Origin: Selaginella moellendorffii
Taxonomy: Eukaryota > Plantae > Lycopodiophyta
Assembly: GCF_000143415.4 (NCBI RefSeq)
Contig: NW_003314270.1
Location: forward strand, 2,570,191 to 2,634,190
DNA: 64,000 nt
Reading direction: 5' to 3'
A program made the translations under genes and the position numbers. Below are positions 8,923 to 64,000 of this stretch, piece by piece. The notes under the pieces were generated by a model. That model did not search any database. It saw only the letters and a list, made by a program, of their open reading frames with translations, and had not been told where the DNA came from. How positions within the stretch are numbered: position 1 is the first letter of the stretch; each line of letters begins with the position of its first letter.

Positions 8923-9022
8923 NNNNNNNNNNNNNNNNNNNNNNNNNNNNNNNNNNNNNNNNNNNNNNNNNNNNNNNNNNNNNNNNNNNNNNNNNNNNNN
9001 NNNNNNNNNNNNNNNNNNNNNN
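8923..9022. other. Assembly gap (100 N)
   Basis: Run of N. Confidence 1.
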
Positions 9023-11651: not shown

Positions 11652-11948
11652 GCACACTATCTTCTGTCGAAAATTCTGTGAATATACCTTTTCGTATATG
11701 TTGCGTGTACACTTTTCCCTTCGTCGATTAGATTGTATTGTGAAATGGTTAAATTTTGAGATATAAACATACATTACAGCATAACTTTTGTGAACATTCT
11801 AGCCATACAATTGAAAGGGTCTGAGATATGTTATCGCATAATTGACTCCTTTAGCCACTTATAGTCAATCAAAATAATTCTTTATATTTATTTTGCAGCC
11901 ACATGTATTGAGTGGTTTGTTTGTTTCAATAGCGCGTAATGACATGTG

Positions 11949-12063
11949 GCCTCCCGTTAAACACCATCCTGATTCATTCTCTCTCCGCTTACCTGGCGAT
12001 GACGTCAGGTCATCGCCAGGTAAGCGGAGAGAGAATGAATCAGGATGGTGTTTAACGGGAGGC
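11949..12063. repeat. Perfect inverted repeat (55-bp arms, 5-nt loop); candidate hairpin-RNA/MIRNA locus or fold-back element
   Basis: 11949-12003 is the exact reverse complement of 12009-12063; loop GTCAG. Confidence 0.95.
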
Positions 12064-42479: not shown

Positions 42480-44500
42480 ATGCCGCAGCTCTAGAGCCAA
42501 GCCGATGGATGCAAACTGTTGAGTGGCCCTGTGCCACGTGGCTACTTTCCAGTGGTTTGCCACGAAGCTTCTGGTTTCCGGCTGTCTTGACGGCAAACTA
42601 TCTCCAGAACCGGCTCCCCACCTCTGCTGGCATCGCTCCTGAAGAAGCATGGAGTAGCAAGAACCTACAGTTACGCATCTGAGAATATTCAGGTGTGAAG
42701 CGTGGGCACACATCCCTGATGGAATGCACAAGAAATTGGACCCCAAGAGCCAGCAGGCTGTGTTTGTCGATCACAAAGCCTATCGTCTCTGAAATCCAAT
42801 CACGAAGCAGGAGATCCTCAGCAGAGATGTGGTTTTCAACGTCCAGTCAAGGTTCTACATCCAGGCCTACCTTGACCGAAGAAAATGACGTTGAAGCGGA
42901 ACAAGACCAGTTGACTGTCAGCATGATCACTGTGCCGCTTCAAACAGTCCCTACGCATCAACTCATGCCCGCTTCTACTCCAACACCACCAATGCCGCCG
43001 CCTCCTCCAGATCCTCCACGCAGATCGATCCGCACAAGGCGGCCTACTGAGCGTCTCATCGAGACAATGGTCTCATCTCGTGCAGCTGGGACTCCTACTG
43101 TTCCGAGGACCTATGGAGAAGCCATGGCCTCACAGGAAGCGTCTTACTGGCGTGTAGCAATGGAAGCCGAGATTGCTTCACAGCAAAAGAACGAGACACA
43201 TGTTCTTGTTCCTAGTGCTTGTTCCTTGTAGCTACTGCCCGGTCATCACCACCATGGAGGCAGACTTACGGCTTGCTACTCCCGAAGCAAAGCTGTACGA
43301 TGATTATCAAGAGCATGTGGGTGTATGCTCTTAAGCTTAATCCTGATGGCTCGGTTCGCGATTGGTGGCGAAAGGATGCTTGCAAGTTCCTGGACTTGGC
43401 TACAACGACACCTTCGCTCCAGTGGTTAAGCATTCTACTCTTCGTTCCTTGATTAATTTTGCTGCGGTGGGAGACTTTGATCTGGAACAGATGGATGTGA
43501 CCACGCCGTTTCTTTATGGCGAGCTTGAAGAAGAAATCTATATGTCACAGCCAGAAGGATTTCTAGCCGCTGGAAAAGAGGATCATCTCTGGCTTCTCAA
43601 AAAAGCTGTCTACGGCTTGAAACAAGCACCCAGATCCTTACTAAGTGTGGGCTTTTCCCGTAGCGAGGCAGCGAATCTTTATATTCGGGTGGACGGTGAA
43701 TCATTTGTGATCATCGCTCTTTATGTTGATGATACTCTTGTCATCCATAATCATCACTTACTGTTTCTCCAGGTTAAGCGAGATCTTTGCAGATGAAAAC
43801 TCTTGGCTCGGCTTCCTACTTTCTTGACATGGAACTTGTGCGTGATCGAGGCTGCCAGCTCTCCCAATCCATGTCTCCTGAGACAGAGGACGACAAAAGA
43901 GCCATGGACTCCATCCCTTACAGACAAGCTGTTAGCAGTCTCATGTACCCAGATATTTCTTTTGCCATGAGCAAGCCAATTCCTGGCTAATCCTGGATCT
44001 CAACATTGGGCAGCGGTGAAACGCATCTTCAGGTACCTTCGTGGTACTACTTACCTTGGATTGTGCTACCAGGGAAAAGAGCTTACCCTCGCGGGCTACT
44101 GTGATGCTGATTTTGGGGGAGACTGAGACACACGCAAGTCCACCTCTGGCTATTCGTTTTCCCTGGGCAGTGCGACAGTCTCGTGGTGCACAGGACGCAA
44201 AGTACAGTGGCAACGTCTAGCACTGAAGCAGAATATTTGGCAGCCTCACAAGCTACCAAAGACACTACTTTCTAACCTTGGTGTGAGTGTGAAGACTCCC
44301 ACTCGCCTCTTCTGCGATAATCAAGCGTTAGCAGCCAATCATCACTTTCATTCACGCACCAAACACTTTGGGATTCATCATCATTTTGTTCGTGAGAAAG
44401 TGGAAGATGGCACAATTGAGCTGATCTACTGCAACATGACGACTCAGGTTGCAGATATCTTCACAAAAGCACTACCCCGAGATCAATTTCAAAGTCCCAC
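42480..44500 (+). mobile_element. Degenerate Ty1/Copia retrotransposon pol (integrase, RT, RNase H); LTRs not recognised
   Basis: GLPRSFW.PAV.TANYLQNRLP; DTFAPV; QMDV..FLYGELEEEIYMSQPEGF; YGLKQAPR; LYVDD; CDADF; STEAEY; RTKH..HHHFVRE; QVADIFTKAL; many frameshifts. Confidence 0.93.
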
Positions 44501-46299
44501 TGGAAGAACTTTCTGTATATTCAACTATATATAAATGGTACATATACATGAAACTACTGCCACGTAGGCATAACTACATGCCACATCATCTAATACTCCC
44601 ACTAGCTGATCCAAGCTTGAATCTAAGCTTGAATCATGCTTAGCTAGTCTGAGATGATGAGCATGGAGAGCTGATGAGAAAGGCATATGAAAAACTCATC
44701 AATCAACTACCCAAAACTTGGTTTTTGGTCATGGACTTACTTGCACACTCTTTGCTCTTTGCTATGGCTTCAATCTTGCCACTAGCATGTGATCTTGGCT
44801 GTGAACTGCAAGGTTCCCATTTTTACTACTACTAAGCACTTAAATCTCCAAAAGTATCCTTCGCAATTGCTAGAAGTTCCTACAAAGAATTGTTATGCCA
44901 TGTTCTTGAATCTTGCTTGATCTAATTTTTTATATAGGTTGCTGAAATCTCTCAATCTCCCACTGGCTTTATACTCTACTTGCTGCTCAGCACCTCTGCA
45001 CAGCCTAGTGCCTTTAAGCATCTAGCACATCTACCAAAAGCTTCAAGCAGTGCAAAAAGGGATTGGAATCAGGAGGCTCATCCTCCTCCTTGTCACTAGC
45101 CTCTTGGCTAGCAAGTTCCATGCCCAAGATCAAGGAGCCAATTGCTTCGATATTATAGTAGTAGTGGAGAGATGCACATGAGGAGGAAATTTTTTTTGTG
45201 TATTCAACTGTATATGGATGGTACATATATATGAAACTACTACTACATAGGCATAACTAGGGCGTGGACCATACTTGAGCTCACGAGTTGAAGAGTTGAG
45301 CTCACGAGTTGAGCTCAATTTTCAATTGTAATTTAGTACAAATATTATAAATTTTAAAAGTTTAAGGTTATGGCGAACCTAATAATTTAATAACTCTCTA
45401 TATATTATATAGATAAAAATGTTCTAAAGAGCACTTTTTGTTCTAATAATTTAAATATTTACTACATGCAATGATAGGGACATTTGTTAGAATATAAAAT
45501 AAAATGTTTGCAAAAAGAGTATTCTTGTCACTTCTTTAAATTTGTACTCTATGCTTTCTGGCTAGTAAATGTTAGGTTTGTCAGAATTAAAAAATTATTA
45601 AATTTGAAATAAGATTCTATGTAAAGCCATATAACCGTTTGAAAGGAAAAAAAATAACCGTTGATGTAAGCTTATTGCATATAAAAGAAAGACTTGGTTC
45701 TTTGTAGAATACATTCTTAAGGGGTTTGTCGTAGCATACTGTCTAGAATTTATAGATCTTCATTCACACTCTCATTCGAAAAAAGGGAAATACACCCACA
45801 AATGTCTATGGGTTCTAGTATTGATAATTTTAACTCTCACAATCTTTCTTCCCAGGGTTCAAGGGCTGAAGATGCAATAACTATCCCATTGCACAGCATA
45901 ACCAAATCACACAAGAGGATGAAAGAGAGGATAGTGAGGATAGTGATCATGAGTTGGAGATAAATGTAATGACAGAGGGTACAACAAATTGGATGAAAAA
46001 GAATGCCCTCTTACTTGTTTTAGAAAAGTGCAATTCTGCCACTTTCAAGAAGTGCCCCATATATTTTCTAGCGTCTGGTGGAAACAATGGCAATGATCAG
46101 TATGATGGTATATATGCTTTTGCGACACACTGCAACATCACGCACCCGAAAGACTACCATGAAATCTTTTTTGAGATGGTAAAGACAGAAATGGAAACAC
46201 ACGAGTACTATGGGCAGTATTGCGAGAAGAACACTCGGAAGCATATAAAATGAAAAGTGAAATGAAAAAGCATATTTTTATTAATTATATAAAGTATAA

Positions 46300-47600
46300 T
46301 AAGTTTTATTGATAGAGAATAAACATCGATAGTGTTGGAGAAATTTAATTAGCTCCAAAAATTTTTTGCAACTCAGCAATAGTAAGGCTTGTTTGGTGTA
46401 TATGAATATCCATTTTAGGATCTTGGCGCAAGATGTTGATGAAGATGTAGTACATATGCTTGCAAGGAGCATATGCCTTCCCATGTTCCTCGCGCTTCAT
46501 AAAGTCTGGACATGTGCAAGAAGGAAAGTTGTGAATGGCAATTGTGTACTCTCCACCTTCTGTTTTGACTGTGTACTCCTTTGCAAGTGCAATGATGTAG
46601 TTCGTGGAGAGAATTTCACACTCAAGTGTTTGAACCAAGTTTATTTTACCTTGCTTCTACTTGGAGACGGTACCAATAAATTTAACTGCCTTACCTTTTC
46701 ATGTTGGCCTCCTATCCATCTCTGTAGGAATAGTCTTGCTCCTGTCACTCATGTCTCCAACTCTCCTCTCAAGATTAAAACTAGATTTCTCAAGGTTTTC
46801 AATCTCATCCGAGGTGAGCGTGACCCCATTAGCAACTGGCCATTCTTTAGGTATTGCATTAGCTTTAGTCACTATAGTGTCTTCAAGCCGCTTCGTATGG
46901 TTGGTGTCGGTGTTGTAACAATATAGCCAGCACCATCTTGAAAATCCTGCTTGCTTTCGTTCCCTATAAAAACATGGGGCTGGAACAGAAGCAGATTTTT
47001 CACCACGAATATAGGCTCAACACTTGCCCCTCAGAAGCATCCCCACACACCTTACATTCAATTTTGTTGGCACGCGTCGGATTGCCCATTGCTTCGGCTC
47101 CACGCTACGGTAAGCAATTTCAACCTATTGTGATGCACTCTCTTCATCAGCCACTTGAGGTGGCTCGGTTCGAGAGCGGTGTCTTGGAGCAGAATGGTAC
47201 TTGACATCAGGTTTGTGAAAGCTTTTTGCTCCAAGGTCCATACTAACATCTTCCCCAGCAAAGGAAAAATGACGCTTTGAGCGGATAGTCTTCATATCAC
47301 TAATAGAAGCTCGGGGAGTGTACTCCATAGATGTGCCATGGACCACTTTCTCAACTGCAGTTGCCACTGTTCGGGCAGGTGGAGTTAATTTTCTCTTCAT
47401 CCTATCATGTAACATCTCAACAGAAGGCCCTGTTCCCATATATCTTCCTTCCTCGAATGCCAGTGCTTTTGAAGATTGCTCTATAGCACATATCAAATCA
47501 CTGATGAGCATCACTTGTGATGGCCACAATGCCAATGGGAGTGTTGAGAGCAGCCCTGTGCCATGTGACTAGTCCATGTGGAGAGACACAAGTCTTCACT
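46300..47600 (-). mobile_element. Degenerate SWIM zinc-finger-containing TE fragment (MULE-like)
   Basis: YTIAIHNFPSCTCPDF...PCKHMYYIF (CxC...CxH SWIM motif) in broken ORFs. Confidence 0.6.
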
Positions 47601-47769
47601 GGTTCACTGTGTATGAGTCCTCACCGGTTCATCGTGTCACACATATATACATTTCCATTCCATATATACTATGACAGATCTTGAGCACCATCACACAGTT
47701 TCACCTTTCATTAGAGCACTATCCTTTGGAGCAGTGGTATAGTTTTGTCATGCCTCACTAGCAGAATAC

Positions 47770-48200
47770 CCATGCCCCAAGCCCCAGCAGTTCAATGGTT
47801 TCCAACCTTTCATGCTAGAATGCTTATCAAAATCTGATTGTGCCTTAGCAGCACACAATTTACATCTCACAACCTATGAGCTGGAAATCCATCTTGACAA
47901 GGGACCTCTGCCAAGATCCAGAGATAGGCAAGGTTGCATAATTGGTCCAGCTCATCAAATGGGCCACTTTGTTTTCATTCACCCGCAGCAATTTTACATA
48001 ACACATCTAGATAATAAGTTGGCTGAAGAGCATCTTCCAAATGAATGGCTTCCAAATTTGAATGAGGAGGTGTTGGTATTGTTTTTATTGATGATGCTAT
48101 GAGAGCTTTTTAAGAGTGAAAAGGACAAATTGTCAATCATCAATAATCTCTTGTATCCACCATGGGACTGCAGTACGAGTGGATGACTAGTTGCCTCACA
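47770..48200 (+). mobile_element. Possible LINE reverse-transcriptase remnant
   Basis: LPRSRDRQGC resembles the LINE RT R.xRQGC motif; otherwise very decayed. Confidence 0.3.
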
Positions 48201-51200
48201 TGGAATAGCTAGTCTACACAATGGAAGGATTAGTAAATTCAATGTGGAAATGGAGGTGTTGGTTCCCCTTGACTCAGTAGGAGTTGTTAGTCAATAGTCA
48301 ATGAGCAGTTGTTATAACTACCTTCATTTCTGGTTTTTTGAAGCTTGAGGGCAAAGAAAGAAAGGTAGTAGAAAGAAGGGTTGGACTTTGTATTTTTCAG
48401 TTTCTTTCTTATTCTATTATCCTAATTTAATGCTTAACAAAGTTATTGGAGCTAACTATAAAGGTAAGATAATGAAGCTATATAGTGATCAATCTATATA
48501 AATCTATGAAGGAACTAGAACTTACTAAACTATCCACTGAGAACCAATCTAATGAGCTAATGAATGGCTGAAATTGAGAACTACAGATCCATTTTATAGA
48601 CCTAGCAGAGGGAACATACCTCAGTTTTGGTTTGTGCCAGTGCCCCAAGGTGCCAAAGCTCTCAATATCAGACACAAGATGGGCCTTATCAAGAATTGAC
48701 TATGGCAGCATGCACAACTAACATTCCCTCCATTGAGTTTGGATTTTATGCTTTCTAAAACAAGTAATATATGGTTGAGTAATTCTTGTAGCTTGCATAC
48801 TAAGAGCAAATCCTTCATAGACTTTAGTTAAAGAGACAAACTTCTGAATTGATTAGAATTACAAACAAGTGATCACCCTTTTAATCATTTAACTTAAGGT
48901 GTAAGGGATAGAATCTTAATAGATTTCATTCCCTACATCTTGACCAAAAAATCTGTAAGCACTCTCCTACTCCACCTACTTCTACCCATGAAACTATGAA
49001 CTCAGCTGGCTATATAACCATAGCAATAACAACATAAGGAAATAAAACATATACCACCAACTTATGGAGGAGATTACTCTGTCAATGATCTCTAAACACT
49101 TGGCATGCAAAAAGTGCTATTATTGTTGTCATGATTATTGCAAAGAATTAATGACTGATTAATGCAATTGGTAATAGGTGGATCTTGCCATATGGAAAGT
49201 AGATTTTAAGCTTGATTGAATCTAGTGATGCAAACCATAATGGTGTACTTCATGTGAATGCTTTACTTATACATCCTTTACCAATTGAAAATGTTACCCT
49301 CACTTATTTATTCTGATCTTCATAAAACTTACTAGTGTCAACAACTATTATACACCATTTTATAGTGCTCCTCCACAAGGTGAATGTCTCGAATGAAATA
49401 ATGGATAGAGAGGTCATAAAGGTCATCAACTAGATTCTAGGATACCAGATTCAAGTCAATAACAACATCCAATGAATGGAGTAATTTTAGCTAAGTTAGA
49501 GCCAAATTAATGTTGTAGGATATCTTTCTATAGCAAAACTTCTTCCTAGCCTTTTGTTTGTCATCATCTCTCTCTCTGCTCCACAATAGCATGAACTAGC
49601 TCAAGTAAAATTACCTTATTACAGTTTTATGACTACACAACAAAGCATAAGCTAAAGACTTCATATACTTAGCATCAATAGAAAATGCATCCACAACTTG
49701 AGAGGACTTGGTCCAACACCCACGATGACATACAATAATAGGCAGAGGTCACCCTCTCTCTCTTCCACATGATTTAAAAGTATCGATTTGGGAATATAGT
49801 GCAAATGAACATTACTCAACAGCTATCCTAAGACCACCAAGTTTCATTTGCTTTAGTTCAATAAACTTGGTTTTTCACAAAGGACGATAGTACTAAAATT
49901 AAGTTACATTTTAAAATTCTACATTAGAAGGCTGAGAATGGACTTCATACCCAGTCCTCAAGAACCTGGTACCCTAGCATTTGCTATAGTTATTTACACC
50001 ATAGAAAACAGTGATAAAAAAGTCACCATCTCCACCACTCATTCCACACTAATGTAAACAAATGGCTTGCAATCACCATATAGTATTAGAATGCTAACAG
50101 TATAGACTCCATCAAGTAAGTTCTCGCCCATAGAATCCCAACGAACTCAATCACAAAAGACAATGAATAGAAGTCTATATGAGGGAATTAAAATACATGA
50201 GCTCACATTTTAGAATTTGGTAATTTAAAAAATTAGTCTAAATATGTTAAACTCCTTTTAATAGTAGCACCTTCACACAAATGAATAAGCAAAGGGATGG
50301 AGAAATCAAAGTGCCTACATCCCAAAACCTCCTTAATTATTTGTCCACAGACACCATCCACCACTAGGGATCTAACATTGACAAACACATAGCTGGGGAT
50401 GGGATTTCAACTCTCTCAATACTCTTTGATCATCATCTACAATTAGCTAGCATCACACACCCTACACTTAAATAATTATTCACCATATTTTCCTTGCTAT
50501 TTCCAATCACTCACTACTTTACTCTCCAGCCATGCTACTATCACTTACTTTGATAAAAACAGTTAGCACACCCAAAACTCAAGTCTTCCAATTGCAAGAC
50601 TTGGCCCTCCTTTAGGTGGCAATGATTGTTGTCATAGTTGAATAAGCTAGACATCAGTATTCAGAGAGATCACCCACTAAGATCCCCAACATGACACCCA
50701 CCACCATTGTAATGAACACTACCTAGGTGGAAGCAACTCTAAGACTTGGTTAATAAACACTTCACTACTATACTAGTGTTGGTGATTGAGGACACCACTA
50801 ATTCATGTTAGCATTACCTCTTTTAATCATCAAAACCACTTGGTTCATAAGGGTGATAAACCACTATACACTCACATAGCCATCCCAAGGCATGAACTGG
50901 TCTTTACTCATTATGGTTGACAACCTAGCCTTCAAGCAAAACACCTAATTTGGAAAGAAGTTAGAAAATAAATTTAGTATCATGATGTACCATTTGACAT
51001 CAATAGATTTGTGTGTGACTTCCATAATGAGGAAGATTTTAGATAGGTTCTAGGAATTACTATCTAGTTCATAAAATGAAGACATCACATAGTGGACTTC
51101 GAAGGCCATAAAAAACCTACTTTGCAAGGTAGAAATTCTTGTTCATATTGACAAAGTTGTTAATATAATTATTTGTAAAGTACTAGTGACATATTACATC

Positions 51201-51689
51201 CCATTAATGGTCTACTTCACACATAATAAAATATCCTATCCTCTCTAAAGCTCTATTTCGTTAAAGTGGGAATTGTTATTATCCCACTTGTAAAATAAGG
51301 TTTCCAAACCTTTATATAATATATAAATATAACAAAATTCAACTGCATTGAGGCACATGCCATTTTATTTTAAACAAGGAAATGTCTACTCAATCACTTC
51401 TTCTCCCCCTGCCACTGCTTCACCTCTCTCTTCTCCTTGTCATCGTCGTCCAATTTCTTTCCATCCTTTTAATATTGGCTCAGTTGCTCCGAGTCTAGGT
51501 GGAGCCCAAGTCCCCATTCAATCTTTACTTTCCCCTTATTAATAAAACAACTTCGTAGACTTCCAATAACATGCTGTAACACTTCTAGTATAATGCAAAT
51601 CCTCTCAAAGAATTGTCTTTTAATATTAATACAATGGCATGGAACCCCATGCCATAATAAGTTACATTTTTAAATAAATACATGCCATC

Positions 51690-52574
51690 TCAGACTGTTA
51701 TTTTTTGCCTCCAACGCCTATACAATAATCTTGGAATTTCATCACTCTCTACACTATCAGGATTTAAACCCAATAGTAATGCCATCTCTTCTCTAATACG
51801 TCCACGCTCATGTTTAGTGGTCGAAGAACCCATCCGGTTGAGCAGATTATGGAGATGCGGATAGTGCTTGGCTAGACAATATACATGCCATAAATGATGA
51901 CTGGTGTCTGTCTGATCAAATGGCTTCTGATATACCGTTCCATCTGCCATTTGGTTGATTTCTGCAGCCACCTCTTGGACTGGCCAATTCTCTATCACTA
52001 TCGCTCCAAGCTGTTTTGCAAGGTCCCCCAAAACATAGGGTTTCTTCTCCCTAGTTTCCATACTGCAAGAGATGGGGTGCACTGCATATGTGTGCGTGTT
52101 CGCTACAGTTTTAATCGGCGAGTCATCGATGATGAGGATTTCACTTGACCTAGCAGTCCGGTTCATCACTACAGCCTCTGGCTTGACGAAGATGGGCTTG
52201 CTACCCCTCACATGGACCATAGTCAAGCAATCCTCCTGCGTTAGGAGAAAGTCAAATGGTAATATTACTCGCGTCTAATCGTGCATCATCTGTAGCAACG
52301 TTAATGCATTATGGCACATCATAGATGTCCAAACTCCCAATTGCAAATTGAACCCGGCCCTCTGTTTTAAGTGTCGCATGGTCATTATTAGATCCTGCAG
52401 TTTCTCCCGTGTGATTAATGTGAATCTGTCTCTTTTGACCAACTTGCGACCGCAGGCTTTGGAGGGTGCAGTGACATTCGAGGACGAGCCACGCTCATGG
52501 GAGAAAAGGACACCGTTCAGATAAAAAACGATACAGTACCTTCGCCGTGACTCTGAAATGAAATGCATCAGCAT
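51690..52574 (-). pseudogene. FCP1/NIF-like HAD phosphatase domain (last exon of the cargo gene), with a premature stop at 52275-52277
   Basis: RYCIVFYLNGVL (DLNGxL-like), LGVWTS, QEDC...KPIFVK, ILIIDDSPIK...N...P. Confidence 0.65.
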
Positions 52575-54490
52575 AAAAAATGGTACAAGTCAATTTTACC
52601 ATCTACATTATTAGCGAATGGTGCTCCCGATAGTCGTTGAGAGGGTTTTGGTCGAGGAAACGTGAAGGGCGGAAATACTCTCCTCTGCAATATGGGGTCA
52701 ATCGCATATGATGGCGTGTGGGCACATGCCATTTCAGCTGTAGACTCTGGTACAACTGGCTCAACAGTGGCATGGGGTGGTTCCGATGGCGTGTGATTAC
52801 ACGCCATTTCAGCTGGTGCCTCCGTTGGCAAAGTGGACATGACCGAACAGGCAGCAGGGGCGGTGTAGGGAGGTTTCAACGACGCGTAGTCAGACGATTG
52901 GGCACATGTTGAGTCCGTTGGAAATGAGGATACGACTGGCTCGGCGGCTGGGGCGGCCTCATGCGGGTCCAATGGCGCCTGGTCACCGTTAGTTGGATAC
53001 GTGGACAAGATTGACTCAGTGGTATGGGCAGCATCAAGTGGAGCGTGGTCAGTTTGCTTGGCGTTGATATGGATAGTAGCCTCCACCAGCTCTGATGACT
53101 CTTGCAGACAAGTAGAGTCCACTGGCAGATCCATATGCATGTCCAAATATCTCCCTTCGATTGAGATGGTATCCTCCCGTGCTACTAAAAACAAACTCAT
53201 TAGCACATTGAATCGACTATACTGTATTTACCATCAACTGCTATTGAGGAACTAGGACCGATATCACTTGGGCGCACTGCTAATTCTGAAGGATTGGACA
53301 TACATTTCGACCCTTGCTTGGCATTATCCTTCCTCGACACTAAAGGCTAGAGTTTGTAAATTCAACTGAATAATCTCTACTTACCATTTGCTCTGCGACC
53401 TACATGGACAATGTTAGAAATGGTAAAAGGTTAGGAATGGATGTACTATTATTTACCTGATGGTTTGTCTTGTATGACCTTCCTCCGCTGCTCTTTGGCC
53501 ACCTCAGGCTGGCCATCGTCGTCATCATCGTCGTCGTTGTTATTGTGATCATCACCATTGTGAGGACCATCCAAGTCCTCTTCATCCTCCTCTTCTTCGT
53601 CCTCCTCTTCTTTGTCCTCCTCTTCATCCTTCTGCTCTTCCTGCTCATTATCTTTCTCTGGCTCCTCATCCCCCTCTTGCATTTCTTCCATAGGCTACTC
53701 AAGCTGGATGGTTTGTTCTTCCAGGACCATCTTGGGAAAATCATCTGGCCGAGTCTCCATCTCAAAATACAACATAGCCTGTTTTAGTGCGTGACCTAGG
53801 ACCGTATCCTCACCCGACTGTCTTAACATGGTTTCTGCACATTCTTGCACCCTTCGAAGACAACGAGATGAGAAAAACGTGGCCCTGACTTGAAAAGCAT
53901 CCCTCATCCATTGTACATCTCTATTGAGATTGGGGAAGGGGAGTCCGCCATAGGAATCTGAGTCAGGAGGTGGTGACTGCCTGCTTTCACTCAGCCCTTG
54001 ATCTGCAATGAATGGCATGAGCACACACGCCATAACCGCGAGGCATTACCTATCATCTTTTCGTTGCCCTTCTTCCTTTTCAAATCAAACGCTTCTGATC
54101 CCGACGACTGTCCAACGTGCTTTCGCTTTTTATGACCACTGTCAGTTTGAGCTTGGCTAGTGCTTGCCTGTTTTGCCTTTGAAGAAGTGTCTCCTGCAAG
54201 GAATGGCATGAGACCACACGCCATTGCAAATATAATTTGTACCTCCTTTTTTCCTATTGCTTGTCTGTTTGTCCTTCTTCGACGCGCCACCAGTGCGCTT
54301 TTCAGTCCTCGTGTCTGAATATTCACAACGATCTATAATCAAAATGGCGTGAGGCCTCACGTGACCTTACCTTGTGCAGGTTGTGAGCTCGGCCCAACAT
54401 GGGTATCTTCAACAGTAGCTGTTAACGCCATTTCAGCATCTAGGGGTGGCCACGCTCCTGCATACAGAGCTTGTGAGATAACATTTAAAC

Positions 54491-55831
54491 TTAAAGTGCG
54501 TACTCACCAGGTTTGCAGAGAAGATACTGTTTTTCTTTGGCAACTGTAATTATATGCTCCATTGAAGTCACCTCTTCAATGGAGTTTGTCACCGCAACAC
54601 ATGGGACACCCTTGAGTAGTGCGGCTCGAAAGAATAGTCCGCCGCAGTTGTACTCGACAACGCATTTGCCCTTGGAGTCGGAAGCAGGTGACCCACCTGC
54701 TATTGCGTTGAAGACCCAGCTGAGCATTTCCCATGCTGCACCTGGAGCTTTCTTTGGATTCGAAAGCTCCATAGCCGTCTTCAGTTCCTCAGGCACGGGT
54801 AAATTGACCTCCCTCAGATCAATTTGATCGGCTTTGTCGAACGAAGCTGGGAAGTCACTCCAGTCCCACTCTGCTGCAGGACCAATAACAAGGGCGAGTG
54901 TGAAGATGCGGACATTCGTCAGTATCTTCTTCTTAGCCATTATCCCATGGATCTCCCGCATCTCCTTGCCTTTCAACCGAGCCTTCACCTCGTTCAAGGC
55001 CTTCCAGAACTTGTGATAGGATTCGGAGTCGTAGATCATATAGTGGACTGAAGATTCCACCTCCGCAAGTCCCACCATTAAGTCAATGATGGAGCTGACT
55101 TTGTCTGCATGAGTGATCTCCTCGTTTGTGAAGTCCATCACACAAAAGATGTTCTTGACCTGCTCATCTCCGCGGGAAACGATGCTCCTCCACCTTTGAT
55201 CCTCATCCGAATTCAAGTATACCCAGTAAGGTTCTCGATAGGCCTCTGCTGCGGGGTCGAGCTGTTTCTGAAGCCGGCGGTCGACATCACTCTTAATGAA
55301 ATTTGGATACTGATCCAACTTCTCAGCTTTACTTTTCGTGGCATCCCGCAGCAGATCGATGAACTTGGGGGCCCCCTTCACGTACTCGTCGATGTCTTCA
55401 TTTGACAAATCCAGCACTTCCATCATCTCTTGCGTGGTGTCGATGCTCACCCTCTCCACGGCCACTTGCTCGAAGATCCAATCCTTCAATAGCGCACGAG
55501 CTCTCAGAGTCGTGCACAAGTCCTCGTATGTCACAATATGGCCGGGAGTCATTTTGGTCTTGTTGAAGACTACCTCACCACGTAGAAGAGCATTAGCCAC
55601 TGTTAGAAGGTCGTTGTCGTCTAGAGACCGCGAGAAACGCAAGGCATTGAGCTTCAAATCATTGGGCTTCCGGCCGTCCTCCACACCCATTGAGTTTAGT
55701 AACTCCCCGTTATGGTACCTCCTCAGCACATCTACCCATTTGTCAAAAACAACTTTTGTCGCGAGTAGAATGTTATGGATGCTGAGTGTGTCATTGACCC
55801 CCAGTGTTTTCGAGAGAAGACTCGAGAATTC
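54491..55831 (-). pseudogene. Cargo-gene exon ending in a DNA amino-methyltransferase-like (N6A/N4C) SAM-binding segment
   Basis: NPKK...WVF.......KCVVEYNCGGLFFRAALLKGVPCVAV parallels xK P..L...GDxVLDPFxGSG....AA...GR..IG of beta-class amino-MTases. Confidence 0.5.
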
Positions 55832-55885
55832 CTGCAATGGAAATGGCGTGAGGCCACATGCTATGCCACATGCAACGAGGCTTAC

Positions 55886-56725
55886 CTGCTATGCGCTAGT
55901 TGCTAGTGCACGTCCTTGTCCTGGTTTTTGTGGCTTCTTCAGTTGAACCCAGAGCTTCCGTGTTCGTGCCAATGTCTCGTGCAGACCCGATTTGTAGCAC
56001 GTTTCTTGCTTGACATTCTGCGTGTGGGAGATGTATATGATAGATCGGAGGGGCGAGCTGCCTTTTATCAAGCGGACAACTCTTGTCTTGAAGACTTTCT
56101 TCACCTCCTCGCCCACCATAATATCCACAACTATCTCTTGCATCGCCAAGCTAGAATGCTGCCCGGAGACGGCATAGAACCGGATGTTCTGATCGTCCAA
56201 CACCTTCCTATTGATCAAGTCTGGAAACCTCGTCTCGCCCTTCATTGTTCGGTAGTAGGGGATCACGTCTGCGATGTCGGGTGTTACTGGACTTGCCAGC
56301 ATCTTCTGCTTTAGTTTCTCCACCCACTCATCAGATATTAGCCTGTGGTTGTATTTGCTTTGGATGTCGATACGGCTCACGTCGATTATATATACTTTGT
56401 TGGAATAGTAACAAGTACTATTATCTACGACGATTTTTGCTGCCTCTTCTTGCTCGTTTTGCTCTTTGCGGCTTTTCTTTTTGGTGGGTGTAGTGTTCGA
56501 ACCCGAGGCAATGGCATCACCGAGTAGCTTCTTTTTTGGAGGAGAGTCGGACGTTGGCTTGAGCTTGACCACCCTTTTCTGCTTCGGGGTAGTTTCCAGA
56601 TTGACCCCCTTCCCCTTTGCTTCGCGAACTGGAGGCACTCTCAACGGCTCAATGTTGGAATATAGTTTTTGAACATCGCCATAGGTGAGGTCCGTGGATT
56701 CCATGTGATCTTCATAGACCCGCAA
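55886..56725 (-). pseudogene. Cargo-gene exon with a Lys-rich (NLS-like) region and a ParB/Srx-like domain; premature stop at 55889-55891
   Basis: IDVSRIDI...HRLISDEWVEKLKQKM...FYAVSGQHSSLAM, a ParB/DGQHR-type GxH motif. Confidence 0.55.
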
Positions 56726-58565
56726 CGTCTTTTGAAATTGTGGGCCTCCTGGACAACCTCTCCCTAGCTCCCTCTAGGAATTCCTCATAACCGCTGCCCC
56801 CTTCCGGGAAGCCGCTAGGATGTGCAAAGTGGATCTTGAAGGCGGACGCTGTCTCTACCACAAGTGCCAGTCCATATTCTTGCATGGAACTGCATGGAGT
56901 GTCTGTCACTTGGATGAGGATCCCTATGCATTCTTTTCTCCCACCATCTGTGTTGTACAGCCTCAGATCCTCACCTTCCATCCCGAAAGTCCAACTGGTG
57001 AGCTCCTCCCCCTTCTCTACATCCACATTGACAGTGGCTGGAAGAAGAATGCAATTCCTCGCCTGTTCAGAAATGCACAACAATTAGAGCTGACAGATGA
57101 AAAGCTAGCAGCTGGAAATAACGTGAGGCCACACGCCATTCACCACTGCATCAGATGTCTTGAGGCTGCATCCTAAAATGGCGTGAGGCTACACGCCATC
57201 TGTAACCGGACTGCACTCGAGAGCCCAATCGGTGCATGCCAATGTTGCTACTGAATGGCATGTGGCCTCATGCCATTTTCTACTTGGCCTAAAAGACTTA
57301 CCATTTGAAGCCGAATGGAGGTGTGACAATCGAGGCCGGACTCGCTGGCGAATGTGCATTATGTGTGCAGCGGATCGTAGCAGCAAGGCTACTCTGCCAC
57401 TTACAGTTGGAGAGTGGCACTGAAATCTCCCGGGACGCCAAGTGGGCTACGTGTGGGTGGCGGAGTGGGCGGCGGAGTTGGCGGAGAAGTTACAAACTGG
57501 GTGTGTCTTGAAGTGGACGCCGATGCATATGAGCGCGATGCGAGCGCGAGTGTGATGCAAGCGCGAGTGGACGCCGATCCACACGAGAAACCTGTAGAGA
57601 AGGTAGATGAGCGCGAATGTAAGCGTGATCGTGAGTGGGAGCGCGATGCGAGTGCGAGTACGAAGCAAAATGCAAAACCTAACCTCACACGCGCGAAATG
57701 TCACGACGGTTGGTAATCCCGCCACGTCATCATTCCTCGGACTTGGGCGCCACCATTAATTTCTGGATCGCCACGCGCATGCATGCACGTGAAATCCAAA
57801 AGAAATCCGCAACGTCATCATTCCTTGGACTGCATGCACGTGAAATCCAAAAGAAAGATCATGATTGGGATATCATTTAATACCTTCGCTATATTTATAC
57901 CATGCATGATTGGATATTCCAAAGCATCTTGTATTTCCAAAAATGCCAGATGTTCAGCTAAATAAATTGTCAGAGGATTTGATGTGACGTTCAAGCGTGT
58001 GGGCTCATGCAATTTTGATCCCAAAAAATGCACCAAAAAATGCTCGGTGTCATCTGGCGTTATCTCTTGAATGGCGTGGGGCCGCATGCCATTTTCAAGG
58101 GCACATAGGAGTATATTCCTAGAATATTCTGATACGGGCGAGATTGTTTTGAGTTTTCTGGAGATCCAACCGTTAGATCGTAACTAGATTTTACAGAATG
58201 GTATACAATGTCTTTCTTGATGACCCTGCAAAGAAGCATCTCGATCAGACACCACATGAGACCACACAAGCCTTACAATGTTTCAGGGGCATTTGCCATA
58301 GATCCGACCGTTATTTTGCTCCAAGATTTTACAGTTTGGTGTGCATTGACCTTTCCATCGACACTGCAAAGGGACATCACAATCAGATATGGGATCACAA
58401 GAAACTAACTTCACTAACTCTGGTTTCACCAAGATCTACGTAAGGAGTTATGAAATGAAAAGACCTTCTCTATTGAAATGTGTTTATGGTCCTAGGGGCA
58501 TTGTGACATATCAAAGGATTTTGCATCAAGTTCTGTATTTGCATGTTTATCAAACTACTGAATTG

Positions 58566-58592
58566 CTAAACTCTAAACCCTAAACCCTAAAC
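58566..58592 (+). repeat. Short interstitial plant telomere-like (telo-box) tract
   Basis: CTAAACTCTAAACCCTAAACCCTAAAC. Confidence 0.6.
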
Positions 58593-59856
58593 ATGTGGCA
58601 AATGCTGCGTGAAGAAAGATGCCCTTTCTGGGCAAATGCTGTAAGAGGAAGATGCCGAGCAGATGTATCTCAGGCTAGCGAAGGGGACAAACGAAAGCTA
58701 GCTATAAATATGATGGGATGCAAATAGATTACTAGGCTGGTCCTACGAAAATCAAAAACCATAATTGAAAACATTGAAAATGCAAAAAGAAAGGTTTATA
58801 ATATTTTTGAATTTTAAGCAACCAAAGGAATGTAAGTAGGGCATGTGTTTGTAAGTTTAAAAATGCCTCAACCACTTAAATTCCCAAGTAAATAAAGCTG
58901 TTTCTATTTTTGGTACAGGTAAACTTTATAGCGTGTGGGCTCATGCAATTTTGAACCCAAAAATGCACCAAAAAATGCTCGACTAGCATTATTCTTTGAA
59001 TGGCGTGTGGCCTTATATTGCCATAAATGGACCTACACACACAGCATAATTATTCCTTTACACGGCGAATAATTTTGGCACGGATCGCTGATACGGCATG
59101 GCAAAGTTCAAATCACTGACATGGCACAGCTGGATCGAGGCAAGGACATGATGTGACAAAGTTCAACCTCCGACAGCAAAGTCTAGAAGCTACTCAGTTT
59201 GAAATTTGTCAGAGGAATCATCAGATCTGGTTTGTCAGAGGATTTGATGTGACGTTCAAGCGTGTGTTATTTTTGAATTCTCAAACTCATTCCTAGGTCT
59301 ATCATTTTTGTGCGCCGTGTTCTTGGTTCCGCTTAGCGCAGTGAGCGCTGCTTGTGTAAGCGGCGTTGTGAGCTGTGGTTTATGCGTCTACAAGCGGTTG
59401 CGGCATTGCGAGCGCCATTGCGAGCGGTAGTTTATGCGAGTGGCAGTTTGTGCGAGCGGCGCTACGAGTAGTTGCGGTGTTGCGAGCAGCACTGTCTTTG
59501 GTGTGGCTACTGCTTCCTCTTGATATTCGGCACTTGTGCTTCCTGGTATGTTCACCATGGAATGGCTTAGGACCACATTTAGAAATGGCATAAGGCCACA
59601 TGCCATCTTGGGCCCTTGCAATTTCATGGCTAGCGTATTGTCATGTATGTTTTTACTTGCCTGTAGCTGTGTGTATATCAAGATGGCATGAGGCCTCATG
59701 CCAATTTTGTGAATGCAAAATTTCACGTGGGTGTCAATAGCATGTTTGAATAATGGCATGTGGCCTCATGCTATTGAGGTTGTTTGGTATGTTATGATTT
59801 AGGCTATTCTCCAATCATTTTTTGTATGGTCTTAACTTCTTTTCTGCACTTTCAGA

Positions 59857-62800
59857 ATGGCCTTCAGGGTTGGGGAAAATGTTTACATTTTGAATGGTGG
59901 GAAGAGAGTTGCAAAAGGGACCCTTGTGTCTATGGATCGGAACTTTGTTATACACTGTCAAAGGCTTGGGGAAGGCAATGCTGCTGTATCAGTAAAGACT
60001 GTCTTCGATGGGAATGTGGTCGCTATTGAACGAGGAGAGATGGTCGTCGGGGTAAATGTTGTTGTTGCCTTGAAAAATCTTCAGAAGAAAGCAGATGTTG
60101 GGGACAGCGCAAGTGCGACGCATGTTCCCTCCGTGGATCTTAAGAACCGTGCTACATGGATTCAGGCAAAGGTGTTTCTAAACAACCCCGAGGGGGAGGT
60201 GGTAGCTGAGGGCTTAGCCACAGTTGTCGATCCAAGAGATGCGGTTGCTAATCAAGAATTGGGCTGGGATGATATTGGAGTTGTGATTTTAAAGGTTGTT
60301 GACACAGAAAAAAACAGTCTGACTATTGGAAGCATTGTGCGGTGGAAATTGAGGCACTTAGTGTTTGAGAATGTGAAGGATTCACAATCAAACACCACTA
60401 CAACTGATGACAGAACATCTCTTCATGGGAAAAGAAAGTACACCTTCCTAAAGCGCAGCCAAAGGGATCTGAGCAACGAACCGAAAAGGCAGAAAATGGC
60501 GATGGAGGTTTGAATGGTCTTGACAGTTGCTTGTTGCAAGAGGAGGTGCTGTCAACATGCTGATTGGGATGCTATTGAAGAGGAGAGAGAAAGATACAAG
60601 ACATTGTCCTGGAAGGCAGCTCGCAATTTTGTGTATGAGGCATTACGGTCATCTGTTGATGCTTCAGAACATCAGGTGGGGGGCATGGTCTTCCAGAGGG
60701 GTTTGGTCTGCATGAAGGCATGGAGAATCATTTATAGAGTCCCTCGAAGCACATTCTATAGAATCAAAACTGAGTTCGAGGAACAAAGGGTTCAACAGGC
60801 AGTCCATGGGAACAACGGTATGCACAAAACCAGGGGTCATGTTGTATATGGAGAGGCAATCTTCAAGAGGTTTGTTGAGACATGTAGCGAGCAGCAACCA
60901 CATAAAACCCGCCTCTTGGAAGATGGAACACGAGACACCCAACGAGTTCTCCCTTCCATGTATACCAAGGGGGCCATATTGGAAGATGTGAATCGGGAAC
61001 TCTAGAGTAATGGCTATAGGAAGCTGAGCCAATCTAGATTTAGTAAATTGTGGAGCAACAGGTTCAGGGATGTGAGTATAGGAAAGTACTCCAGCTTTTC
61101 AAAGTGTGACGAGTGCACTGCTATCAAAATGGCTTTGTCGAAGAATTCTTGTAGCGCTCAAGAGCGAGAGACGTTGGTTAGAAGGCGGCTCGACCACAAC
61201 ATCGAGCAGAGAAGCTGCAGGACTGCATATTATCATAACAGGATTCTCTCCATGGAGAGACCTGACTCTTACCTCTGCATCATCCACGACAAAATGGACC
61301 AGAAAAAGACATGCTTACCTCGACTCAATCCTGCCCCCAAGGCAATCTCTTCATCCATGCAGTTGCCTGTGTCTCTGTTTGGCATAATCGCTCATGGGCA
61401 TGGTGCCCAGAACTATGGGAACTTCTTTGTACCTCTATGGGGTGGCGGGGGTGCAAACATGATGATTGCGTCCCTAGCAAAACACTTAAGGTCTCTGCAA
61501 AGTGCGCAGACTGAGCTAAACGGCCAACCCTTGCATAAGGCCCTTGTCGATCAAACCCCATACAGGGTTCAGCTGGAGGAGGAGCAAAGGCTTGCAGTAT
61601 CGCATGGGGCCCCATGCCATCCTAGTGAATATGTTGGCCGTCAGATTGTAGGGTTATCACGTGAGGCCTCATGCCATTCCGACGAGGCTGGTCGCCCGGT
61701 GAATGCACAGCCTCATCCAAATGAAGCAGAATCTCAAGGAAGTTCTTGCGGCCGATGTGGCCTTCCACCCCATCTTCTGCTCCAAACAGACAATGCTGGC
61801 AGTGAGAACAAAAACATGTACGTCTTTGCGTACTTGGCGATGCTTGTTGCCAAAGGCATATTTGAAACGGTTACACTTGGCTTTCTCATGGTTGGGCACA
61901 CTCATGAAGACGTCGATGCCATGTTCAGTCACCTGGCAGAGTCCCTCCGGCGATCCAATGTCCTCACCCTCCCACAACTCTACGATGAATTCCAAAATTG
62001 CATCAAAGGCACTGTTGAAGCTGCACTTGTGACAGAGGTTCCAGACTTTAAGGGGTTTGTAAGAGGCTACATTAGGGACGGATCCGAAACGCTGATTGGC
62101 CACTCCAAGCCTCTTCAGTTTCATTTCAACATGCGTGACGGTGCTCCAGTGATGAGGTACAAGATGAGAGAATGGGACACAGTGTGGCTTCCAGTGGACG
62201 GCATTGAACTCTTCAAGAGAGATCCCATAACTGGGGAACCTATAATTCCTCAGGGTTCCCCACGGCCGATGCACCCAGATGGACTCAAAGACCAGGAAAG
62301 TATAGTGGCCGGGATTAGACAGCATATTGCCTTTTGGAAGAGGGGGTTGGTGTTTGGTGGAGAATCCTATTTTAAGAGGTGCAAGCCTTTGCTCGAATAC
62401 TGGGAGAAGATTATATCTGCTATCCAAAATGGGCCGGTTGTATATGAAGAATTGAAAGAGTCCTTCTGGCCAGAACCTAGAGCACCAGATAGTAGCGGAA
62501 CAATGTCCTCTGGAAATGCAGTGACAGATAACGATGTTGAGGATCACTATTGTGGGCCGAGGAACAAGAAGCCGGATTCAGCATTCAATCCAGTACAAGT
62601 CTGCAAAGGAATGGTCGTGCTTGTCAGACCCAGTAATAAAAAACAAATGATATGGGTGGGGCGCTGCATCACTGATGTAGAGGAGGACGCGGAAACTAAC
62701 TCCTTCAATGTAACTGTGGAGTGGTTCAAGCCAAGTTCCGGATATACGAAGGATTGCCTAGAAAAGAGATGGGTGTTGAATCCAAGGGATCCCAGCATGA

Positions 62801-62998
62801 ACATATCGGTGGATAATGTTGTGCATGGTTGGATGCGGAAGCAGAGTGCCACCATCACCTTGCCAGACCATGCAAGAGATGCAGCAAGAGCATTCATAAC
62901 CTGGGTTCAAGGTGAGATTCATTAATATTCCTTTACTAAGTTTCTAATGTATTTTATTTCAAGGTGAACAATCCGAATCTGAATCAGAGGAGGCGTGA
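59857..62998 (+). pseudogene. DDE/D RNase-H-fold transposase (DUF7869-type, Sola1-like), about 1020 aa if two in-frame stops are read through; probable small last exon at 62964-62998
   Basis: Same frame from 59857 to 62925; CCKRRCC, CMKAW, HGN, FSKCDEC, IIHDKMDQ, LLQTDNAGSENKN, FLMVGHTHEDVDAMFS. Confidence 0.75.
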
Positions 62999-64000
62999 TG
63001 GCATGGCGTGATGGCGTGAGGCGTGACACCAAAAAGGAGGTGTCCACTAGCGCTTAGGCTTATAATGGCGTGTGCCCTCATGCCATTTACTTGATCACCA
63101 AATACCTTTTTCCCTTTGCACTAGTATATCTTAATACCGGTCTGAGAAATAGAATGGCATGTGCCCTCAGGCCTTTTACTAAATCACCTTTGAAAGAAAT
63201 GCAAGCCTCTATGTCGTAAAAAAAAGGTACTAGAGAAATTCCTTAATAATATGAATATTATTTAGTTTCATGAAAATACACTAAGGGTCAAATGAGTTAA
63301 ATGACTTCTTCAGACTAGCAATGCCTCTTGCTACACCTTCACAATTAGATTCGTTAGAAAAAGATAACATTGAATAATATCTAAATGTTCTCACCATTAA
63401 GTTATATGTCTGGCTAATAGGAATGACGTTCATCTTGGAAAGCTCACCACATGCTCAATGAACAAACAAATAGTGTGTGTGCACATGCCATCGCTCTTCT
63501 TTAGCTTCAGATTCGGCTTGTTCACCTTGACAATGAGATTTATTATACAACCAGATGGACTCAGTCTGGACACAAAGTCACCGCGCTAGTCACCATGCCC
63601 CAGATATGTCTAGCCCCTGGACAAAAGACATATAATTTCACGTCATTTTCAAATACTTGAAAATTTGTACCTAGTCCCATTTTACTGAATAAATCCCACT
63701 TTAACGAAATAGAGCTTTCTATCTCAACATACCGCTCGGTTTCTTTCAACTATCTTGCAAAATTATGAGAGAGTGAAGACTTTAGGATAATTTAGATAAA
63801 CATGCTTCACTTCTTCTTGCAATTCCAAGTGCATAACAAATGAACCAAATAATGGCACACACTAAACTTGACAGGTTTGCTACAATAAAACTTCCCAACA
63901 CAACACAACCCTAGTGCTACAACACATGCTGGGACTACATGAGATCAAGGAACAATAAACTCCATTACAAAATAACTAGACTCAATTTCAAGAATAGAGT

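Follow-up and report, generated by a model that had tools for sequence, protein, structure and literature searches.

What protein, if any, reads a 22-bp palindrome that recurs along the whole of one transposable element and is almost missing from the host DNA beside it? The question is raised by a stretch of 64,000 nucleotides of the Selaginella moellendorffii genome (NCBI RefSeq assembly GCF_000143415.4, contig NW_003314270.1, positions 2,570,191 to 2,634,190 of the forward strand), here called the window, which contains a Sola-like DNA transposon with two divergent genes, one for a transposase and one for an accessory protein with a predicted ParB/Noc-type fold. An original prediction, made from the letters of the window, had proposed that about 21 such palindromes are confined to this element and form the binding site of a dimeric protein. 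The palindromes are very probably read by a protein that the element itself encodes, and the fuller reading, in which this reader would be the ParB-like protein acting like TnpA or VANC, is given, by analogy with those systems, a probability of roughly 0.55.

Palindromes and the element that holds them

Across the 64 kb, the consensus ATGGCRTGNGGCCNCAYGCCAT is matched 19 times with at most three mismatches, where 100 dinucleotide shuffles averaged 0.01 matches and never gave more than 1, and 21 times with at most four. The consensus was refined to ATGGCRTGWGGCCWCAYGCCAT, and a profile scored 23 sites at 12 or more within the element (51342 to 63491), with 0.08 in Markov shuffles of the element, and 20 at 20 or more, with 0.01 in the shuffles; the profile derives from the same sites, so these in-element counts are partly circular and the shuffle test of the consensus is the cleaner one. 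The original prediction had envisaged scanning the genome with such a profile; within the window, the scan finds one match outside the element at a score of at least 12 and none at 20 or more, and confinement to one element is upheld on this scale. This sole outside match (11939-11960, score 15.8) lies near a C2-domain gene and may be chance or a remnant. The three copies quoted in the prediction are located at 57255, 63065 and 54203, and the conserved ends that it described keep a constant spacing, ATGGC-N12-GCCAT occurring 10 times and all other gaps within 6-19 together once. No exact match of the palindrome was found in viral contigs.

The element and its ends are as follows.

51248..63717, unstranded: complete terminal inverted repeat (TIR) DNA transposon, 12,470 bp (inverted ends, empty-site joint and depth)
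51248..51271, + strand: left TIR, 24 identical bp, beginning AAGCTCTATTT (alignment of ends)
63694..63717, - strand: right TIR (alignment of ends)
51244..51247, + strand: left 4-bp target-site duplication (TSD), TCTA
63718..63721, + strand: right 4-bp TSD, TCTA

An inverted-repeat search of the ends gave 51247 and 63688-63718, resolved to 24 identical bases from 51248 and up to 63717. The empty site is seen in DNA runs X1 and X2 of one sample, where contigs join 51243 to 63718 and skip 12,474 bases, with 4 ambiguous letters. With TIRs, TSD and empty site all present, this is a cut-and-paste TIR DNA transposon, and the features of CACTA/En-Spm elements are absent, since the ends begin AAGCT rather than CACTA and the TSD has 4 bp rather than 3 bp. 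Its family is clearly very abundant: summed depth in X1 is about 700,000 within the element versus about 300 in the flank (a summed read depth, which is not a copy number), and of 54,621 X1 contigs that align to the window copy, 29,480 are at least 99% identical to it. The window copy is a slightly decayed member of this very high-depth family, from which it differs mainly by C>T and G>A changes; 24 such places, out of several hundred, were classed as 9 CG, 6 CHG and 9 CHH, contexts of which the element holds 890, 904 and 3,977, respectively.

The palindromes outside the short introns, which are listed further below, are distributed as follows (all unstranded).

51342..51363: palindrome scoring 12.3 and centred 105 bp from the left end
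51634..51655: palindrome just beyond the accessory-gene stop
52711..52807: two palindromes (52711, 52786) in coding sequence for a linker rich in Pro, Ala and Glu
57118..57276: three palindromes (57118, 57178, 57255) within the accessory gene's predicted first intron
57992..59024: palindromes 57992, 58071 and 58928, together with a copy at 59000 that has 3 nt inserted, all between the two divergent genes
59585..59774: three palindromes (59585, 59683, 59753) within the transposase gene's predicted 5′ intron
61599..61677: two palindromes (61599, 61656) in a length-variable transposase insertion (alignment A1)
63011..63491: four palindromes (63011, 63065, 63154, 63470) in non-coding DNA at the right end
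63625..63646: weak, degenerate copy whose score of 6.7 is within the range of chance, centred 82 bp from the right end

The claim that copies occur in intergenic DNA, introns and coding sequence is borne out, but coding sequence, which makes up about 64% of the element, holds only 4 of the 23 (binomial p=5e-6, all-coding test), and these four fall in the Pro/Ala/Glu-rich linker and the length-variable transposase insertion. Several repeats of other kinds lie close to the palindromes. Duplicated blocks of 35-60 bp occupy the divergent intergenic region (57967-58027, 58923-58963 and 59232-59292), where reads show many rearrangements among family copies; CG-rich GCGAGT/TGCGAGC-like repeats stand directly upstream of each element gene (57520-57680 and 59340-59500) and resemble a GC-rich first-exon control region; and in non-coding DNA at the right end, three palindromes lie between the 47-bp arms of an inverted repeat (62959-63005 and 63484-63530, 83%).

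None of the 23 palindromes is perfect, the mean being 8.2 of 11 pairs, and the two halves do not covary, either at positions 6/17 (p=0.65) and 9/14 (p=0.37) or over 141 sites of related elements (p=0.84). Because the halves vary independently and no copy is perfect, the pattern argues for a two-fold symmetric protein site and against a hairpin; with the fixed spacing, it is the behaviour that the original prediction had expected of a dimeric-protein site. Its account of the R/Y variation at CpG positions, that of methyl-C deamination, is not supported. Over 46 half-sites, the position reads CA 25 times, CG 18, TG 2 and CC once (p=6e-6 versus the equal CA and TG expected of random deamination), and for the palindromes at 54012, 54203 and 54344 no variant at 2% or more is listed in three DNA runs, so that they have the same letters as the family majority. 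Since the variation is one-sided and these three sites match the majority, it appears to be tolerated degeneracy, not recent CpG decay; older deamination filtered by selection is possible.

Four palindromes lie in short predicted introns of the accessory gene.

54003..54049, - strand: 47-nt predicted intron with palindrome 54012; CTCAT, A at -16
54194..54242, - strand: 49-nt predicted intron with palindrome 54203; CTCAT, A at -16
54333..54370, - strand: 38-nt predicted intron with palindrome 54344; CTCAC, A at -18
55832..55885, - strand: 54-nt predicted intron with palindrome 55843; CTCAC, A at -18

Branch points follow a YTNAY-type consensus. Four of the nine short predicted introns hold one palindrome each, which ends 9-11 bases before the AG, and in these four no word between -15 and -25 resembles a branch point except the CTCAY of the palindrome; the remaining five have ordinary YTNAY words at -15 to -18. 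The CTCAY thus likely doubles as the branch point in the four predicted introns. On the spliced strand the free W position is T in all four, compared with about 43% of such half-sites (p ~0.04), a suggestive preference. This placement, and the slightly stronger folding of two of the four introns relative to shuffled sequences (z -2.5 and -1.7), could also be expected if the palindromes served mainly in splicing, as hairpins of RNA or single-strand DNA or as tiny mobile introns. That explanation is very improbable: compensatory changes are missing, T-T and A-C mismatches are frequent, the other two introns fold at chance level (z 0.45 and -1.2), 13 of the 23 palindromes lie outside the short introns and the 5′ transposase intron, five short introns are predicted to splice without a palindrome, and no Rfam match was found.

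Candidate readers encoded by the element

Two genes of the element, transcribed divergently, supply the candidates.

51690..57304, - strand: spliced accessory gene, predicted product of about 1,650 aa (predicted exons; divergent from the transposase)
55960..56430, - strand: ParB/Noc/sulfiredoxin-type N-terminal fold with an SGQHS motif (Atlas features 0.93-0.96, Foldseek, VIA)
54508..55300, - strand: Rossmann region resembling a methyltransferase, in which no catalytic motif can be recognised; no more than a lead (Atlas 0.82-0.85, N6_N4_Mtase clusters)
59857..62925, + strand: DUF7869 (Sola-like) DDD transposase of 1,022 codons, interrupted in the window copy by two premature stops (Pfam PF25273, E=5e-43)

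Ten predicted exons of the accessory gene, from 56728 down to 51690, stay in frame over 1,534 codons with three internal stops; the first codon and first intron come from a by-eye reading of the sequence, and the window copy has a one-letter frameshift near 56730 where reads lack the letter. The protein would consist, in order, of an unfamiliar N-terminus, a ParB-N fold, a helical domain, a degenerate N6/N4-methyltransferase-like part, charged linkers and a HAD/NIF-like C-terminus. It goes unrecognised in sequence searches of Pfam, PHROGs and PDB, and word-based homolog searches with two pieces of the gene returned nothing; a full HMMER search gave 16 weak matches, of which P0075 and P0077, repeat artefacts, are omitted from alignment A2. 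Homologs of the helical and methyltransferase-like parts are annotated as S. moellendorffii genes (P0073 and P0089-P0091), in two near copies, possibly a domesticated form.

The ParB assignment draws on an AlphaFold model built on 20 sequences (mean pLDDT 59, pTM 0.42). Noc, ParB and PadC take ranks 1-13 among its Foldseek matches in PDB (best E 2.4e-3), and VIA aligns it to PadC (Z 9.7, rmsd 3.0, 99 aligned) and KorB (Z 9.1, rmsd 2.7, 94 aligned). With Pnob8 ParB (196 residues, covering model 95-389, Z 8.2) and Spo0J (163 residues, Z 5.1) the alignments extend loosely into the helical domain, at rmsd 4.3-4.5 in a predicted model; this domain may correspond to the central helix-turn-helix DNA-binding domain of ParB and Noc. 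Phage ParB/Spo0J proteins are also matched, at E ~1e-4. The accessory protein is accordingly modelled as a ParB-type fold followed by a helical domain, in line with the ParB-like domain named in the original prediction. Its part as the reader is suggested by the short inverted-repeat sites (parS and NBS) that its structural relatives bind, and by the same analogy it would dimerise. In bacterial ParB, CTP is bound by a GERRxRA patch (PMC7333895). The idea that CTP might load the protein as a clamp is doubtful because the patch here reads GQHS, not GERR; with the arginine patch replaced (G(Q/A)HS in all 12 alignment rows spanning the motif), a classical CTP-driven sliding clamp is probably absent.

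The part after the helical domain suggests another use for the palindromes, as substrates of an active element-encoded 4mC/6mA methyltransferase that tags the element. Beta-class N6A/N4C methyltransferases have a (D/N/S)PP(Y/F) catalytic motif, for instance DPPY or SPPY. Its PPY was not found in the window protein or its homologs, in which the Asp is kept and the site reads CVMDFT, IADLRR, VCDSA, VLDAT or FADFA; with no catalytic motif recognisable, the accessory protein probably does not transfer methyl groups. For such a role speak the resemblance to N6_N4_Mtase in Atlas features (0.82-0.85), a SAM-loop-like VEYNCGG kept in the homologs, and the ParB-plus-methyltransferase architecture that also occurs in Ectocarpus Sola1-1_Ec32, a proposed self-modifier (PMC12477816). 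The fold itself is tentative, VIA giving Z 6.0 for residues 639-728 (69 residues) and a separate model of this part a pLDDT of 42, and tagging by methylation is highly improbable. The HAD/NIF label of the tail is a motif pattern only, with a collinear but non-significant alignment to a NIF-positive open reading frame of a related locus (L009, Pfam E=5e-6).

The transposase has premature stops at codons 219 and 383 in the window copy. A DDD triad can be assigned among its acidic motifs (HDKMD, QTDN and HEDVD), the choice of the catalytic Asp residues being provisional. Beyond the label DUF7869, on which a literature search found no paper, Pfam offers no name for it, and a PDB search gave no match. 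There are 71 homologs, the named plant ones being from Ceratodon and Riccia; for the element proteins together, named homologs come from Ceratodon, Riccia, Selaginella and Calypogeia. The 4-bp TSD and the DUF7869 transposase with its acidic motifs fit the Sola superfamily as described, 4-bp TSD included, in PMC10741241, a comparison with the published description; PMC5751038 is a further source for Sola features. A target preference for AWWT, the hallmark of Sola1 (PMC3845634), suits the ATAT of one related element (L009) and neither the TCTA of the window nor the TAAA of another (L070), among few sites.

The transposase is the main rival reader. Bound by its Transposase_23-like N-terminal repeats or a helix-turn-helix, the palindromes would be subterminal and internal sites for end pairing and self-activation, leaving the ParB-like gene to other work. 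Its N-terminus does give weak Pfam matches, to PF03017 (Transposase_23-like, E=0.005) and CUT (E=0.16), and a 2026 preprint reports sequence-specific self-activation of copies by a transposase (10.64898/2026.08.24.746577). This is a tentative and rather unlikely alternative: TIR and palindrome have no visible sequence in common, so that two specificities would be needed, and many palindromes lie kilobases from the ends, inside the accessory gene.

Palindromes of related elements

Related elements bear on both candidates. Of 464 loci in metagenome contigs that encode a related transposase, the 80 best were used, several of these 80 being the same place assembled twice, and their palindromes were found by a de novo dyad search. 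The commonest is ATYTRGTGGCCACYARAT, whose exact core GTGGCCAC occurs in 52 of the 80 loci, in 214 copies versus 2.3 expected. Others are TTTGGCCATATGGCCAAA (L001, 10 copies), CCCACGGGTGNNCACCCGTGGG (L026, 11 copies) and GAAATCTARCAYGTGYTAGATTTC (L023, 5 copies); in about a dozen loci, mostly short, no palindrome was seen. By sequence, then, related transposons have palindromes of their own, of at least four types besides that of the window and 16-24 bp long. Where both ends were found, the palindromes keep to the element, with counts inside and outside of 40 and 1 (L009), 8 and 1 (L064), 8 and 0 (L070), 12 and 0 (L029), and 7 and 0 (L043). The ends of the relatives read AACACATATTT versus AAGCTCTATTT in the window element; their TSDs are ATAT (L009) and TAAA (L070), and are mismatched or unmatched in three of the five two-ended relatives.

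This turnover bears on two other notions, that a transcription factor of the host binds the palindromes or that they arose neutrally through local duplication and CpG decay. Tandem duplications do make up some of the clusters in relatives (L009 and L026), and the window copy has many C>T and G>A changes; the motif nevertheless differs between element clades, with at least five types of 16-24 bp, no high-score copy occurs in the 51 kb of host DNA, and the flanks of the window palindromes are mostly unrelated to each other. Either notion is highly unlikely. The arrays have periods of about 24 bp and about 47 bp (L009 5917-6435, L026 52-350), and right-end palindromes in many loci are about 113 bp apart.

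The outermost palindrome tends to recur at a similar distance from the end. Over 27 de-duplicated right ends, its centre lies at 81-85 bp in 16, at 64-65 bp in 4 and farther away or absent in 7, and at left ends it lies at 97-105 bp in 4 of 7; the ends are related and the counts not independent. The window element has its outermost copies at 105 bp (left) and, weakly, at 82 bp (right). The contrast drawn in the original prediction with CACTA subterminal repeats consequently stands in part: the palindromes are spread throughout the window element, but the outermost keep a recurring end distance and in many relatives most palindromes lie near the ends. The fixed distance would also suit the transposase as reader, as would the palindromes of two short elements with no other gene detected (L064 and L070), although short derivatives would keep cis sites for any trans factor. 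The variant outer base also follows the transposase tree, T (18 loci) and C (11 loci) splitting on a single branch with 1 change compared with a shuffle mean of 9.1 (SH-aLRT 94), in a quick tree of 65 rows, 29 labelled loci among them, that left out 15 presumed duplicate loci and rows under 170 residues.

In two loci the transposase has a decayed ParB-like gene as its neighbour: L055, where the helical part is matched at E=1e-10 and a GGQHT motif is present, and L040, which matches L055 in tblastx (E=9e-11). L009 and L055 have a NIF gene and palindrome clusters in common, but the 4.6 kb in which L055 carries its ParB-like gene, between two clusters, are missing from L009. Between L055 4-6907 and L009 5000-7500, the segment with the NIF-like gene and the palindrome clusters is inverted; the palindrome arrays may promote inversion and deletion, and misassembly is possible.

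Proposed role and known systems

In the favoured reading, a predicted dimer of the ParB/Noc-fold protein would bind the element-specific 22-bp palindromes of its Sola-like transposon, and binding would mark the whole element as self and keep it expressed. The outermost palindromes could have an architectural role in bringing and pairing the element ends together, since they recur at similar end distance. The internal ones could serve trans-activation or protection from silencing along the element, because they surround both promoters and sit in introns. As the arginine patch is lost, coverage would come from many scattered, fixed palindromes in place of CTP-driven sliding and spreading from one site. 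Those in introns, with CTCAY as the likely branch point, would cover genes at no cost to the protein. A bolder version, a eukaryotic parS/ParB system in which a nucleotide-gated dimer, loaded at palindromes concealed in intron branch points and at fixed end distances, coats or bridges the 12-kb element against CG/CHG silencing and pairs its ends, with protein and palindrome co-diverging so that each family reads itself, is speculative and unlikely.

Several results weigh against reading by the ParB-like protein. The window profile has only three marginal matches (score about 12) in the 80 loci, and ParB-like remains were found in 2 of these versus palindromes in about 52. L009 has 40 palindromes and no detectable ParB-like gene, which fits the transposase equally well, and the tree pattern is uninformative on which protein reads the palindrome, since both genes travel together and kin share labels. 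The accessory model is middling, with no Foldseek match in PDB at E≤0.001, and its arginine patch departs from that of ParB; the introns are predictions from sequence; and the 82-bp copy of the window is a weak match chosen post hoc because relatives have a site there. In run X2, depth has peaks over three palindromes (correlation with distance rho -0.79, or -0.50 as a residual once CG and CWG counts are allowed for, in autocorrelated bins), yet at the 450-bp scale CG and CWG explain 79% of the variance and no palindrome effect is left (rho -0.19, p=0.35), so the peaks are not counted as support for a methylation footprint. The missing ParB-like genes weigh little, as many loci are short, decayed or deletion derivatives.

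X2 has other peculiarities. In this run alone, letters change at or beside CAG/CTG triplets in window positions 54144-54316, reaching 83% at 54292, and depth is lower where CG and CWG are denser. The changes look like base-calling error at methylated sites, which would mean that most copies are CHG/CG-methylated.

The favoured reading has precedents in algal transposons, themselves hypotheses. Ectocarpus Sola1-1_Ec32 has an opposite-strand gene for a ParB plus N4C/N6A-methyltransferase, proposed to bind and modify its own element (PMC12477816), and so resembles the window element in having an opposite-strand accessory gene of this type on a Sola element. It differs, by description, in its brown-algal host and 1,104 aa, whereas here a land plant has about 1,650 aa, a degenerate methyltransferase-like part and a HAD-like tail; the string ‘palindrom’ does not occur in the main text of that paper. 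PAG3, on a Plavaka (EnSpm) element of the red alga Bostrychia, has a ParB-like domain, with adjacent tandem inverted repeats proposed as its binding sites (10.1101/2025.02.11.637652). Here too a transposon-borne ParB-like protein is found with inverted repeats in the element as proposed sites, but those of Bostrychia form tandem arrays beside PAG3, which has a fused 2OG oxygenase and accompanies an EnSpm-type transposase; the palindromes of the window are dispersed element-wide, at predicted branch points and at a recurring end distance. ParB-HTH methyltransferase fusions in chlorophytes and chytrids are listed in PMC4738411. The likeness to bacterial ParB/parS and Noc/NBS (PMC7333895) lies in the N-terminal fold followed by a helical domain, in a predicted model, and in two-fold symmetric dispersed sites; the differences are GQHSxxA for GERRxRA, no ParA partner in the element and an intron-containing eukaryotic gene inside a transposon.

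The roles proposed are modelled on two plant systems. VANC21 of Arabidopsis VANDAL21, a Mutator-like element, recognises 9-bp asymmetric motifs arrayed in one orientation, and its anti-silencing has been shown (PMC5735166). The window element is similar in pairing an accessory protein with family-specific motifs in the introns, intergenic and terminal non-coding DNA of a long element, motifs that differ between families, and differs in its 22-bp dyads and ParB-fold protein. TnpA, the second protein of En/Spm, binds repeated subterminal sites needed for transposition and activation (PMC2613891; 10.64898/2026.08.24.746577); the repeated cis sites and their co-diversification with element lineages are alike, whereas the window element has no CACTA ends or 3-bp TSD and has internal sites too, and the DNA-binding domain of TnpA is transposase-derived, not ParB. 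As in both systems, a family-specific motif is enriched in the non-coding parts of the element.

The algal proposals that a ParB-like accessory protein reads its own element come first, and the land-plant variant is new; in the papers found, the binding site of the algal proteins was neither defined nor tested. In the literature searched, Sola-like elements of land plants are nowhere described as having dispersed palindromes specific to the element, and by title and term counts the Ectocarpus and Bostrychia papers were the only relevant ones to turn up; the search lay outside subscription journals, Repbase and supplements, where such repeats may already be described. Added here are a defined palindrome, its clade-specific turnover, the recurring end distance and the coincidence with branch points, as predicted. 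The element offers a candidate site whose 22-bp consensus is sharp, in a family that is abundant and young, with relatives whose different palindromes suit swap experiments. If binding is confirmed, plant transposons would have a self-recognition system independent of TnpA and VANC, the third of its kind, drawn from a bacterial chromosome-segregation fold, and it would show a binding site hiding inside genes by doubling as a splice branch point. A parS/ParB-like system, if true, would be directly testable because the family is young and abundant, and could become a programmable sequence-specific chromatin tool.

The element is inserted in AT-rich, CpG-depleted repeat DNA (43362-51247), downstream of an RVT_2 (Copia-type) fragment, and the remainder of the window holds plant genes (PPR, transferase and TspO) and a run of 100 N at 8923-9022. 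Within the element, a telomere-like CTAAACCCTAAACCCTAAA lies at about 58570.

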